Notes under the pieces: generated by a model
What the model saw: the letters and a program-made list of their open reading frames with translations, nothing else
Told to the model about the DNA's origin: nothing
Database searches by the model: none
Shown here: positions 1,299-10,440 of the stretch, in pieces
Layout: every line of letters starts with the position of its first letter
Position numbering within the stretch: position 1 is the stretch's first letter
Translations under genes and position numbers: made by a program
Virus genome (UHGV): UHGV-0197964
Origin: a virus
Length of the DNA stretch: 16,193 nucleotides
Direction: 5' to 3' (one strand)

Positions 1299-1374
1299 TG
1301 GTGCTGGTTAACGGACTTGAACCGCTACCCATTCGCTTACAAGGCGACTGCTCTACCATTGGAGCTAAACCAGC
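1299..1374 (-). tRNA. tRNA-Thr (anticodon UGU)
   Basis: Manual cloverleaf: 76 nt, perfect 7-bp acceptor stem (GCUGGUU/AACCAGC), U8 A9, 4-bp D stem with GG in loop, anticodon loop CUUGUAA, T-loop UUCAAGU, discriminator A, encoded CCA. Confidence 0.8.
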
Positions 1375-1379
1375 ATATT

Positions 1380-1454
1380 TGGCGGGACAGCGTGGACTCG
1401 AACCACGATAAGAAGGTTAACAGCCTTCCGTAATGACCTTTATACGACTGACCC
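1380..1454 (-). tRNA. tRNA-Asn (anticodon GUU)-like, possibly degenerate
   Basis: 75 nt; 5-bp anticodon stem with loop CUGUUAA; perfect T arm CGUGG-UUCGAGU-CCACG; encoded CCA; but acceptor stem has one U-U mismatch and D arm is atypical. Confidence 0.5.
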
Positions 1455-7777: not shown

Positions 7778-7788
7778 ATAATTACCTC

Positions 7789-7866
7789 GTTGGATGTTGT
7801 TAAAATTCCATTTGTATTTGATCAGAACGCTCGGTCTTGCACACCGGGCGTTTTATTTTTTTATGT
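7789..7866 (+). ncRNA. oop: oop-like antisense RNA (~78 nt) with its own -10 and intrinsic terminator
   Basis: Perfect TATAAT at 7777-7782; transcript would start GUUGGAU...; terminator hairpin GCUCGGU/ACCGGGC (7 bp, one G-U) at 7829-7850 followed by a U-rich run to ~7867; resembles recalled lambda oop in length, start and 3' end. Confidence 0.5.
7802..7852 (-). repeat. unused second copy of the cII 3' end, downstream of the HNH gene
   Basis: Minus-strand frame reads RPVCKTERSDQIQMEF-stop, homologous to lambda cII C-terminus (RPAATERSEQIQMEF); shares CCGGGCGTTTT with the active cII 3' end at 8333-8345. Confidence 0.65.
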
Positions 7867-8281
7867 GCTTCCATTTTTCACCTCTGCAAATGGCAGCTAT
7901 ATAATTTGGCGTTACTCCATATTTTTTTGATAATGCCCTTGTGTTGAATAAGGGGTGTCTTGGTATATATTCACTAATGATGTTTCTTACATCATCTTCA
8001 GTTAATTTTGCCCTACCATTCCTGCTTCCAAATGCCTGCCTTTTTCTCTCCACCATGTCATTTGCGTTTTGCTGACTTGTCCCAGCACATAAATGAGAAG
8101 GTAAAATACAAGAAGGATTGTCACATGCGTGACGAATTACTAAGCCATCTATATCTTCAAGCTGGATCCCTTTTGCCACACAATAAGCAAATCTATGAGC
8201 AAATACTTTTTTCCCATTAATCCAAACCCTTCCATAACCCTTGCTGTCCTTTAAACCGCCAAATTCCAAACACGGAGTCAT
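7853..8281 (-). CDS. HNH homing-type endonuclease (HNH_3-like)
   Basis: 142 aa; GYGRVWINGKKVFAHRFAY and HACDNPSCILPSHL motifs typical of phage HNH endonucleases; visibly AT-richer than flanks; own RBS 10 nt after the cII stop. Confidence 0.85.
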   Translation of the reverse strand: MTPCLEFGGLKDSKGYGRVWINGKKVFAHRFAYCVAKGIQLEDIDGLVIRHACDNPSCILPSHLCAGTSQQNANDMVERKRQAFGSRNGRAKLTEDDVRNIISEYIPRHPLFNTRALSKKYGVTPNYIAAICRGEKWKHIKK

Positions 8282-8291
8282 AAGACCATCC

Positions 8292-8585
8292 TTAAAAATT
8301 CATGGTTAACTGATTCTCAGCGAAAATATCCGCCGGGCGTTTTTTATTGGTGAGAATCGAAGCAACTTGTCGTGCCAATCGAGCCATGTCGTCGTCAACG
8401 ACGCCCCATTCAAGAACAGCAAGCAGCATTGAGAACTTTGGAATCCAGTCCCTCTTCCACCTGCTGATCTGCGACTTATCAACTCCCACAGCTTCCGCTG
8501 TCTTCTCAGTTCCAAGCATTGCGATTTTGTTAAGCAACGCACTCTCGATTCTTAGAGCCTCGTTGCGTTTGTTTGCACGAACCAT
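8292..8585 (-). CDS. cII: transcriptional activator CII
   Basis: Internal Met of the ORF gives 97 aa, identical to recalled lambda CII through residue ~84, then a divergent 13-aa tail (ADIFAENQLTMNF). Confidence 0.95.
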   Translation of the reverse strand: MVRANKRNEALRIESALLNKIAMLGTEKTAEAVGVDKSQISRWKRDWIPKFSMLLAVLEWGVVDDDMARLARQVASILTNKKRPADIFAENQLTMNF

Positions 8586-8600
8586 ATGTAAGTATTTCCT
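8560..8600 (+). promoter_or_regulatory. pRE-like promoter with CII site TTGC-N6-TTGC
   Basis: TTGCgtttgtTTGC at 8563-8576 on plus strand overlapping the cII start, oriented toward cro/cI as in lambda. Confidence 0.6.
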
Positions 8601-8664
8601 TAGATAACAATTGATTGAATGCATGCAAATAAATGCATACACCATAGGTGTGGTTTAATTTGAT

Positions 8665-8696
8665 GCCCTTTTTCAGGGCTGGGATGTGTAAGAGCT
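8665..8696 (-). promoter_or_regulatory. nutR (boxA-like AGCTCTTA; boxB GCCCTGAAAAAGGGC)
   Basis: BoxB hairpin at 8665-8679 identical to lambda nutR boxB; boxA-like 8689-8696 with one mismatch. Confidence 0.75.
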
Positions 8697-8704
8697 GGAA
8701 TGTC

Positions 8705-8920
8705 TTAAGCGGCTTTGTGTTCCGGCGGGAACACGTCATCAAGACTGACTTTTGCGCCTAACTTGTTTAGGCACTCAACAAGAGCACGGCATGTTTTAAG
8801 GTCTGGGAAGCGACGACCAGATTCCCAATGTCCGATAGCTCCCTGTGTGCATCCAACCGCCTTAGCAAGTGTTGTTTGAGAGATATTCAGTGACTCTCGA
8901 TATTTACGTAGGTTGCTCAT
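8705..8920 (-). CDS. cro: Cro-type repressor (HTH, non-lambda specificity)
   Basis: Internal Met of the 151-aa ORF gives 71 aa with HTH ISQTTLAKAVGCTQGAIGHWESG; GGAGG 4-5 nt upstream; divergent from cI across the operator region. Confidence 0.8.
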   Translation of the reverse strand: MSNLRKYRESLNISQTTLAKAVGCTQGAIGHWESGRRFPDLKTCRALVECLNKLGAKVSLDDVFPPEHKAA

Positions 8921-9037
8921 ATGCCCTCCATAGTAACCATGAGGCAATAATACGATATGTACTTTTGGAATGCAAACAAAAAATACATCTTGTGCATGGA
9001 TGGTTTTAGTACAGAGCGTAATAATAAGGATATGAAA
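8921..9037. promoter_or_regulatory. right operator region (OR / pR / pRM) with candidate operators
   Basis: Divergent cro and cI starts ~115 bp apart; pR candidate -35 TTGCAT and -10 TATTAT (17-bp spacer) on minus strand; site at 8949-8963 matches the OL palindrome 13/15; weaker sites at 8982-8996 and 9008-9022. Confidence 0.6.
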
Positions 9038-9691
9038 ATGAAATGGTATGAACTGGCTAGATCCAGAATGAAAGAGCTCGGCATAACTCAAGAGAAGTTG
9101 GCTGAAGAGCTTGGTATGACGCAGGGTGGAATTGGTCACTGGTTGCGCGGATCTCGTCATCCATCTCTTGACGAGATTGGTGTGGTGTTTAAATACCTTG
9201 GTATTGATAACGTCTCATTCAACCACGACGGTACATTTTCACCTGTTGGCGAATACTCATCTTCCCCCGTTAAAAAACAATATGAGTACCCTGTTTTTTC
9301 TCATGTTCAGGCCGGGATGTTCTCGCCTGAGCTTAGAACCTTTACCAAAGGTGATGCGGAGAGATGGGTCAGCACAACCAAAAAAGCCAGTGATTGTGCG
9401 TTTTGGCTTGAAGTTGAAGGTAATTCCATGACCGCACCAACAGGATCCAAGCCAAGCTTTCCTGACGGGATGTTAATTCTCGTTGACCCTGAGCAGGCTG
9501 TTGAGCCAGGTGATTTCTGCATAGCCAGACTTGGTGGTGACGAGTTTACCTTCAAGAAACTGATCAGGGATAGCGGTCAGGTGTTCCTACAGCCACTAAA
9601 CCCGCAATATCCAATGATTCCATGCAATGATAGCTGTTCCGTAGTAGGGAAAGTTATCGCCAGCCAGTGGCCTGAAGAGACATTTAGTTAA
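9038..9691 (+). CDS. cI: CI repressor, chimeric: heterologous N-terminal HTH domain fused to lambda-type C-terminal cleavage/dimerisation domain
   Basis: From about [21 protein letters not shown] to the end it is near-identical to recalled lambda CI; N-terminal ~90 aa differ; start ATG 9038 chosen over 9032 on SD spacing. Confidence 0.9.
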
Positions 9692-9722
9692 CAGCCTCAC
9701 CACTCTAAAACACACAACAATA

Positions 9723-9751
9723 ACCCGACCTTAGCGTCGGGTTTTCTTTTT
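9723..9751 (+). terminator. intrinsic terminator directly downstream of cI
   Basis: 7-bp perfect stem ACCCGAC/GUCGGGU, 6-nt loop, then UUUUCUUUUU. Confidence 0.65.
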
Positions 9752-9770
9752 CCAAAATATAAACCAATTA

Positions 9771-9852
9771 AATACAAAGCGTTATAAAAAACTAATTATA
9801 TTTAGAACATTTTGTATTGACTCGATAAAGTACAAATCGTACTATTTAGCCA
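9771..9852 (+). promoter_or_regulatory. left operator and pL region
   Basis: Palindrome AGTACaaatcGTACT at 9829-9843 overlapping candidate -10 TACTAT; -35 TTGACT at 9816-9821 (17-bp spacer); downstream ATCAGCAGG matches the lambda pL transcript start; second weaker site 9771-9785. Confidence 0.55.
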
Positions 9853-9884
9853 TCAGCAGGACGCACTGACCACCATGAAGGTGA

Positions 9885-9915
9885 GGCTCTTAAAAATTAA
9901 GCCCTGAAGAAGGGC
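9885..9915 (+). promoter_or_regulatory. nutL (boxA-like GGCTCTTA; boxB GCCCTGAAGAAGGGC)
   Basis: BoxB hairpin at 9901-9915 identical to recalled lambda nutL; boxA-like at 9885-9892. Confidence 0.75.
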
Positions 9916-10113
9916 AGCATTCAAAGCAGAAGGCTTTGGGATTGGATGAATGAGCAGGCTGATGCTCGACCAATGTATAAACAGCGCTCATGGCAAGCAG
10001 TAACCAATCTGCGCCTCAAGACAGCGTCACTGGTAGTGCGGGCGCTCTAACCAGTAAGCCGGGGTTCAGCGCCGGCCATCCAATCACCAAAGCTAACTGA
10101 CAGGAGAATCCAG

Positions 10114-10440
10114 ATGGATGCACAAACACGCCGCCGCGAACGTCGCGCAGAGAAACAGGCTCAATGGAAAGCAGCAAATCCCCTGTTGGTTGGGGTAAGC
10201 GCAAAACCAGTTAACCGCCCTATTCTCTCGCTGAATCGCAAACCGAAATCACGAGTAGAAAGCGCACTGAATCCGATAGACCTTACGGTGCTGGCTGAAT
10301 ACCACGAACAGATTGAAAGCAACCTGCAACGTATTGAGCGCAAGAATCAGCGCACATGGTACAGCAAGCCACGCAGTGAAATGGGTGTGACTTGTGTTGG
10401 TCGCCAGAAAATGAAATTAGGCAGCAAACCACTTATTTGA
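10114..10440 (+). CDS. N: antiterminator N
   Basis: 108 aa near-identical to recalled lambda N over the first ~85 aa, including the arginine-rich motif. Confidence 0.95.
   Translation: MDAQTRRRERRAEKQAQWKAANPLLVGVSAKPVNRPILSLNRKPKSRVESALNPIDLTVLAEYHEQIESNLQRIERKNQRTWYSKPRSEMGVTCVGRQKMKLGSKPLI

Follow-up and report, generated by a model that had tools for sequence, protein, structure and literature searches.

A lambdoid lysis/lysogeny switch of probable VT2-Sakai specificity, with a chimeric CI repressor, in an Escherichia coli prophage genome

Results

The immunity cassette and its limits

The virus genome UHGV-0197964, a stretch of 16,193 nt that we analysed as a whole (hereafter the window), carries a lysis/lysogeny control region in which cII, nutR, cro, a 111-bp right operator (OR) region, cI, a terminator, the left operator (OL) region with the leftward promoter PL, nutL and N follow one another, an orientation reversed relative to the standard lambda map. 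The Pfam families found are Phage_CII for cII, N36 for N, HTH_3 for Cro and both HTH_3 and Peptidase_S24 for CI. An earlier note on this DNA, made from its letters alone, had described positions 8705-9852 as a swapped immunity cassette in a lambda backbone. From the comparisons below, we conclude with high confidence that the region is the switch of a lambdoid Escherichia coli prophage, a bistable CI/Cro system with the specificity of phage VT2-Sakai.

Alignment to lambda by blastn (NC_001416, lambda 33000-41000) divides the region sharply. Five blocks are lambda-like: 8330-8698 (lambda 38248-38616, 97.8% identity), which holds rutA/nutR, most of cII and the pRE motif TTGC-N6-TTGC; 9281-9685 (93.8%), which covers lambda cI from precursor residue 102 onwards, the 3' two-thirds of the gene; 9714-9749 (89%), which matches lambda just past rexB and forms a terminator hairpin in the window; 9851-9940 (lambda 35494-35583, 98.9%), which runs from PL +1 through nutL; and 10085-10415, which matches lambda N at 94% nucleotide identity. 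No lambda match was found across 8699-9280 or 9750-9850, none to lambda cro in the window, and none to rexA or rexB anywhere in it. The right limit of the non-lambda part lies no more than about 6 bp from the cro stop codon and the left limit exactly at the PL transcription start, lambda homology resuming at 9851, the equivalent of lambda PL +1. Judged by this alignment, both limits are classical boundaries of an immunity substitution, and the cI C-terminal domain is a lambda-homologous island inside it.

The same blocks agree with the earlier note in taking N, nutL, nutR, cII and pRE as lambda-like and in finding rexA/rexB missing, with a terminator straight after the cI stop codon at 9691; that terminator is 89% identical to lambda 35799-35834, the post-rexB terminator region. 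A heteroimmune cassette, in which cro, the CI head and the operators are all non-lambda, does lie between lambda-type N/nutL and nutR/cII. The antitermination module is of the lambda type, with an N protein bearing an arginine-rich N-terminal peptide and a boxB in both nutL and nutR. Both boxB elements are identical to those of lambda, and in nutL and nutR alike boxA departs from the lambda sequence CGCTCTTA at its first base. The promoter that we take, by homology, to be pRE points towards cI via antisense cro.

A chimeric repressor shared by a family

The predicted CI repressor is built of two parts: a non-lambda HTH_3 N-domain (9038-9280) with its helix-turn-helix (HTH), and, from 9281 to 9688, a linker, an Ala-Gly cleavage site and an S24 C-terminal domain, all of the lambda type. 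The homology break at 9281 falls at codon 82 counted from ATG 9038, equivalent to lambda precursor residue 102, in the inter-domain linker about 10 residues ahead of the Ala-Gly site. Upstream of the break, the first 81-84 or so codons are non-lambda, with 18-57% nucleotide identity to lambda in sliding windows, and at the protein level the N-domain finds the solved lambda repressor through a weak HTH-level match alone (1lli, E=0.003). Pairwise alignment to lambda, which the earlier note had proposed as a check, thus gives an N-domain that is not lambda-identical. Its view that cro and the first ~90 residues of cI differ from lambda holds, given the lack of any blastn match across 8699-9280, and the junction that it had put near 9300 can be placed at 9281.

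Downstream of the break the picture is reversed. The C-terminal domain is identical to that of lambda CI at 133 of 136 residues (98%), and CI matches the intact lambda repressor (PDB 3bdn) at E=2e-96, with the C-terminal domain aligned end to end and VQAGMF, the serine of GNSM and the lysine of FTFKK aligning identically. CI combines HTH and S24 domains, an Ala-Gly site and a Ser/Lys dyad, as self-cleaving repressors of the Lambda CI / LexA type do. The features of lambda immunity itself, a lambda-type CI N-domain, the lambda operator consensus in OR and OL, and a lambda-fold Cro together with rexA/rexB, are absent.

The sharpness of the break could point to a recent origin, in which a lambda prophage recombined with a heteroimmune phage in this very lineage. 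The informative sites of the C-terminal domain lean in the same direction, 17 of them agreeing with lambda, mostly clustered in the 5' two-thirds, against 8 that agree with VT2-Sakai (a further 15 are unique). However, a three-way alignment with lambda finds the same junction codon and a lambda-type C-terminal domain in the cI of a Shiga toxin 1 (Stx1) phage, and because that codon is common to the Stx1 phage, VT2-Sakai and every further member, the fusion must predate the family. The VT2-Sakai-type C-terminal domain is moreover 93% identical to lambda as a class, and the domain in the window is itself 6.6% diverged from lambda. A recent, local fusion is therefore highly improbable. On the alignments, the chimeric cI is a property of the whole VT2-Sakai family and not an event of this genome, so the 'recombination junction' of the earlier note is real but common to every VT2-Sakai-type cI. 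The informative sites suggest that the C-terminal domain of the window is a mosaic of lambda-like and VT2-Sakai-like tracts, a hint that exchange through this shared domain may continue.

Public records differ on where cI begins. PGAP and Sato et al. use ATG 8996 (231 aa), which lies inside OR2 and the -35 of the maintenance promoter PRM, while Makino et al. and the annotation of phage vB_EcoP-720R6 use ATG 9038 (217 aa); a second in-frame ATG is present at 9032. The putative PRM -10 at 9020-9025 suggests a transcript that starts at about ATG 9032 and, as in lambda, a cI mRNA that would be leaderless.

Cro and the six operators

Cro is not of the lambda Cro fold, its Pfam matches being to HTH_3, HTH_31 and HTH_19 only. 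Its closest solved structures are PDB 28tn (E=2.4e-16) and the N-domain of P22 C2; the former was deposited as an 82-aa 'lambda repressor-like protein' and can be aligned over residues 1-69, a span that takes in the C-terminal VS.DDVFPP motif. The HTH_3 domain of Cro is a paralogue of the CI N-domain (35% identity, E=4e-13), and the recognition-helix string of Cro, TQGAIGHWESGRR, is near-identical to that of CI, exactly as the earlier note had quoted the two.

The same note had pointed to a 15-bp palindrome shared by OL and OR, each copy over a candidate -10, which our pattern and promoter scans confirm. Scanning all 16.2 kb for ARTAC-N5-GTAYT with zero mismatches returned two matches in the window and no others, 8949-8963 (AATACGATATGTACT) and 9829-9843 (AGTACAAATCGTACT). 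When mismatches were then allowed, the two sites became six 17-bp operators, three on each side (Table 1), with the consensus TAGTAC-N5-GTACTA, symmetrised as TAGTACAAATTGTACTA. Centre-to-centre distances are 33 bp for OR1-OR2, 26 bp for OR2-OR3, 25 bp for OL1-OL2 and 33 bp for OL2-OL3; the arrangement is not mirror-symmetric, the promoter-proximal pair being 33 bp apart in OR and 25 bp apart in OL. The centre of OR2 lies at about -43 from the predicted PRM start (lambda, -42) and that of OR3 at about -17, and the centres of OR1 and OL1 lie at about -16 of PR and PL. PR sits where the VT2-Sakai record has its 'putative major rightward promoter', and PRM was placed by alignment from the 'putative maintenance promoter for cI' of the same phage.

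In a leave-one-out test, in which a position weight matrix built from five operators was used to rank 16,177 window positions, the omitted operator came first or second for five of the six sites, and OR2 came about tenth. Between the window and VT2-Sakai, 93 of 102 operator positions are identical (91%) against 33 of 56 spacer positions (59%; Fisher p=3e-6), a footprint of conservation that speaks for selection on the sites. We considered chance AT-rich matches as a source of the palindromes and rejected them on the zero-mismatch scan, the leave-one-out ranks and the operator/spacer conservation. The lambda operator consensus (TATCACCGC..GGTA, up to 3 mismatches) has no match in 8924-9031 or 9750-9850, and its two matches elsewhere in the window are at the level expected by chance.

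Identity with the VT2-Sakai immunity type

By megablast, the cro-OR-cI segment is 92.5-93.5% identical in VT2-Sakai, in a Stx1-converting phage and in Stx2 phage II of Morioka V526, and likewise in Nil2, 1717, YYZ-2008, 2851, PA4-series phages and many others. In GenBank, VT2-Sakai (AP000422) and the Stx1 phage (AP005153) each carry annotations for PR, PRM, PL and six putative operators, half of them in OR and half in OL; the six operators of the window map one-to-one onto these sites, in the same order and with spacing within 1 bp. The window thus has the Cro type, the CI N-domain recognition helix and the three OR and three OL operators (TAC-N7-GTA) of the VT2-Sakai type. Cro is identical to VT2-Sakai Cro at 70 of 71 residues, with the sole change outside the HTH; CI is identical at 208 of 217, and within its N-domain at 77 of 81, with an identical HTH and four substitutions (SD to DE after the HTH, I to V and A to S).

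Table 1. Features of the control region and its neighbours (window positions; + and - denote strands)
Feature	Position	Strand	Description	Evidence or counterpart
tRNA gene 1	1302-1374	-		
tRNA gene 2	1383-1454	-		
HNH endonuclease ORF	7853-8281	-	directly after cII	Pfam HNH_3
cII	8292-8585	-	lambda-type transcriptional activator	Pfam Phage_CII E=2.7e-45; lambda homology
pRE	8563-8595	+	CII-binding TTGC-N6-TTGC 8563-8576; -10 AAGTAT 8590-8595	identical to lambda in this stretch
nutR	8665-8696	-	boxB GCCCTGAAAAAGGGC 8665-8679; boxA AGCTCTTA 8689-8696	lambda alignment
cro	8705-8920	-	71 aa, all-helical HTH_3; Shine-Dalgarno GGAGGG 8924-8929	Pfam HTH_3 E=1.5e-12
PR	8947-8976	-	-35 TTTGCA 8976-8971; 18-nt spacer; -10 TATTAT 8952-8947	consensus scan
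OR1	8948-8964		TAATACGATATGTACTT; holds 15-bp palindrome; over PR -10	VT2-Sakai L004 2845-2861
OR2	8981-8997		AAATACATCTTGTGCAT; weakest consensus match; abuts PRM -35	VT2-Sakai L004 2877-2893
PRM (putative)	8997-9025	+	weak -35 TGGATG 8997-9002; -10 AATAAT 9020-9025	
OR3	9007-9023		TAGTACAGAGCGTAATA; over PRM -10	VT2-Sakai L004 2903-2919
cI	9038-9691	+	217 aa (219 aa from 9032)	Pfam HTH_3 E=8e-11, Peptidase_S24 E=9e-29
Terminator	9722-9753	+	intrinsic terminator of cI (PRM/pRE) transcript; hairpin and T-run	terminator scan
OL3	9770-9786		AAATACAAAGCGTTATA	VT2-Sakai L004 5074-5090
OL2	9803-9819		TAGAACATTTTGTATTG; partly over PL -35	VT2-Sakai L004 5107-5123
PL	9817-9845	+	-35 TTGACT 9817-9822; 17-nt spacer; -10 TACTAT 9840-9845	consensus scan
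OL1	9828-9844		AAGTACAAATCGTACTA; holds palindrome 9829-9843; over PL -10	VT2-Sakai L004 5132-5148
nutL	9885-9915	+	boxA GGCTCTTA 9885-9892; boxB GCCCTGAAGAAGGGC 9901-9915	lambda alignment
N	10114-10440	+	lambda-type antiterminator, 108 aa	Pfam N36 E=1.5e-26; 94% nucleotide identity

This immunity type is already in the literature. The cI2c variants, partnered by cro4, share their carboxy terminus with lambda CI and differ in the amino terminus (Smith et al. 2012, PMC3430580); for phages of the Sakai type, Yin et al. (2015, PMC4587872) list three sites in each of OL and OR; and VT2-Sakai is treated as having six 17-bp operators (PMC10742460). As relayed by the last source, Fattah et al. (2000) described a repressor that resembles lambda CI closely in its C-terminal part and little in its N-terminal part, and lambda/VT2-Sakai cross-immunity is attributed to the same work, with an explanation proposed through the recognition helix. 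The immunity type, the six operators and the lambda-type C-terminal domain of CI have thus been known since about 2000 (GenBank AP000422 and AP005153, and papers), and the 'new operators' of the earlier note, non-lambda as it had said, number six rather than two and were already annotated in VT2-Sakai and the Stx1 and Stx2-II phages. As a further member of the type we considered the repressor of BAA2326 that was purified by Chakraborty et al. (2018, PMC5977221), and rejected it: its operators are ATAACTGTGCGTAATG and others, and it lies in another genomic context.

Four points weigh against this reading of the region. The operator features of VT2-Sakai are marked 'putative' in GenBank. OR2, a weak consensus match that ranks about tenth in the leave-one-out test, lies upstream of the PR -35, making its role at PR uncertain. 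Activation of PRM in lambda uses a surface of the N-domain, which differs here, so activation is not guaranteed. Finally, since four residues of the N-domain and one or two bases of each operator differ from VT2-Sakai, identical specificity is something that we infer. Such differences could mean that the architecture is shared and the specificity is not, the clade of the window having drifted to heteroimmunity against the Stx-phage clade: the two clades are ~7% apart in DNA, five of the six operators differ at one or two bases, among these a G at OR1 position 7, and OR1 and OR2 are 33 bp apart rather than the 32 bp of VT2-Sakai. Yet helices 2 and 3 of the CI HTH are identical, the one Cro change avoids the HTH, and the TAC/GTA half-site cores are kept in both clades, with the changes falling mostly on central, probably uncontacted bases. 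We consider divergent specificity improbable, and a switch of VT2-Sakai specificity remains by far the better description of the region.

Distribution and genomic context

Closer relatives lie outside the Stx phages. Five P22-like isolates, the phages vB_EcoP-720R6, vB_EcoP-683R2, Dewey, Louie and phi458, match the cro-cI segment together with its flanks at 98.5-99% identity. In the first of these the match extends at 99% over 8330-9940, from cII to nutL, with the same compact layout lacking rexAB, and its CI differs at a single residue (216 of 217 identical); unlike the window, it has no HNH gene after cII and has another inner N leader. Positions 8586-9960 are 100% identical in four E. coli chromosomes (Ecol_881, EC11, CH10508 and MS14385), and at least 80% of this interval is covered in 204 complete E. 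coli genomes.

That the sequence equals a chromosomal prophage in E. coli genomes raises the question of whether the ORFs and palindromes are relics, left by a decayed and non-functional immunity region in a cryptic prophage, and one VT2-Sakai record does have a cI allele with a premature stop (PMC3430580). Against this, none of cI, cro, cII and N is disrupted; at 7% DNA divergence from lambda, the C-terminal domain has only 3 changes in 136 residues, and so few amino-acid changes point to purifying selection on it; the operators are far better kept than the spacers; and near-identical regions occur in phages isolated as viable particles. Decay is accordingly the least credible of the alternatives, and an intact VT2-Sakai-type switch fits these observations.

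The whole window is best matched by P22-like phages, namely CUS-3 (55% covered at 97%), Sf6, HK544, mEp213 and 683R2, and the equivalent prophage of Ecol_881 encodes a replicative DnaB-type helicase, a Rad52-type recombinase, a single-stranded DNA-binding protein (SSB), an anti-RecBCD function (Abc) and ead/Ea22-like genes. On both counts we reject a lambda backbone for the window as a whole, which is a P22-like/CUS-3-like mosaic; the earlier note's phrase is apt for the modules that flank the cassette. Judged by these matches, the window is an ordinary lambdoid mosaic.

Of 5426 complete E. coli genomes, 1207 (22%) carry DNA for the lambda-type cI C-terminal domain (9290-9685), at 1428 places in all and at most three per genome. 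Because the domain is so widespread, repressors with different DNA-binding heads and the same oligomerisation/cleavage domain may often be co-resident.

Neighbouring features

The homology of cII to lambda stops at ...ACGCCCGGCGG (~8330), and the final ~12 codons (8292-8329) are non-lambda. The adjoining HNH gene belongs to a segment at 7780-8345 whose far end, 7780-7854, holds an orphan second cII 3' end and an oop-type terminator that are 100% identical to Min27/phi24B-type phages. The segment resembles a free-standing cassette for a homing endonuclease that was inserted at the 3' end of cII and the oop region, bringing a recoded cII terminus with it. Megablast against 50,697 phage records gave no match to the HNH gene, which occurs in only 6 of 5,426 complete E. 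coli genomes, always beside cII.

In the N leader (9852-10114), lambda homology is confined to the outer parts, and the inner ~145 nt (9941-10084) are different. This inner segment recurs, without annotation, at 98% identity in IME10, Gally, vB_EcoP-611R6 and two Stx2c phages. Compared with shuffled versions of itself, the leader folds far better (z = -4.76), and the fold includes a long closing stem, GGCUUUGGGAUUGGAUG...CAUCCAAUCACCAAAGCU. Lambda has its RNase III-processed hairpin at this position; compared with lambda, the outer stem is retained and the inner part swapped.

Elsewhere in the window, the two tRNA genes are probably the tRNA-Thr/tRNA-Asn pair found upstream of the lysis genes in vB_EcoP-720R6. 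At the gathering threshold, Rfam reported these two tRNAs only in the window, and no oop or nut families.

Discussion

From the gene content, the homology boundaries, the family and positions of the operators and their identity with annotated VT2-Sakai elements, a model of the switch can be drawn, in which binding order, activation, looping and cleavage are predicted by homology and geometry. CI dimers would bind the six 17-bp operators through the non-lambda HTH_3 N-domain. Occupation of OR1 and OL1, which overlap the -10 elements, and of OL2, which overlaps the PL -35, would shut PR and PL; from OR2, at about -43 and so in a lambda-like geometry, CI probably activates PRM; and at OR3, over the PRM -10, it would exert negative autoregulation. 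The lambda C-terminal module should provide dimerisation, pairwise cooperativity and, upon stimulation by RecA, self-cleavage in which the Ser/Lys dyad cuts at Ala-Gly, and probably also allows OL-OR looping by a CI octamer over ~0.88 kb. Cro would compete for the same sites and turn PRM off in lytic growth, and establishment would depend on lambda-type CII acting at pRE.

The oligomerising part of this repressor is 98% identical to that of lambda CI and its DNA is common (22% of genomes), which makes it conceivable that CI forms mixed dimers or cooperative oligomers with heteroimmune repressors that share the C-terminal domain in polylysogens. This idea is speculative and, in our view, unlikely to be right. 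If true, mixed oligomers would couple or destabilise the switches of co-resident prophages, and would offer a protein-level explanation for lambda/VT2-Sakai cross-immunity in place of the recognition-helix explanation of PMC10742460.

As a discovery the locus matters little, with near-identical copies in sequenced phages and E. coli chromosomes. Its value lies elsewhere. First, it shows with textbook clarity how modules are exchanged where two protein domains meet, with a distinct DNA-binding head set on a shared oligomerisation and cleavage domain. Second, it places a Stx-phage immunity type in circulation among non-Stx, P22-like prophages of human E. coli isolates, a point of relevance to superinfection immunity where Stx phages meet resident prophages.

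Among known systems, VT2-Sakai (Sp5) is closest, sharing cro, a CI with identical HTH, the six operators, the positions of PR, PRM and PL and the lambda-type C-terminal domain, at ~7% DNA divergence and with the 1-bp difference in OR1-OR2 spacing given above. The two differ in what surrounds the switch. In VT2-Sakai about 1.3 kb with two ORFs of unknown function (H0093 and H0092) occupies the rexAB position between cI and OL, putting OR1 and OL1 2287 bp apart, and the flanks are N, nut and cII of the HK022/933W type, whereas those of the window are of the lambda type. In the window cI leads through the terminator directly to OL, and because nothing else sits between them, OR1 and OL1 (8956 to 9836) are separated by only 880 bp, compared with ~2.4 kb in lambda; any CI octamer loop here would be unusually short.

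Lambda itself resembles the window in gene order, in having three plus three 17-bp operators, with OR2 at about -42/-43 of PRM and OR1/OL1 at about -16/-17 of PR/PL, and in its homologous pRE/CII, nutL, nutR, N and terminator after the cI operon. It differs in a CI N-domain that is unrelated at the DNA level, in the fold class of Cro, in operator sequence and in having rexA/rexB. Since OR1 and OR2 are 33 bp apart in the window and 24 bp apart in lambda, OR2 lies upstream of the PR -35 and not over it as in lambda. The switches of 434 and P22 offer a further likeness, a small, all-helical HTH_3 Cro that is paralogous to the repressor head, and in 434 Cro and the repressor N-domain have near-identical recognition helices. 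There is no close sequence identity between the window and these two phages, whose operator sequence and CI C-terminal domain are different; what they share with the VT2-Sakai type is the pairing of a Cro with a repressor head of the same HTH_3 family.

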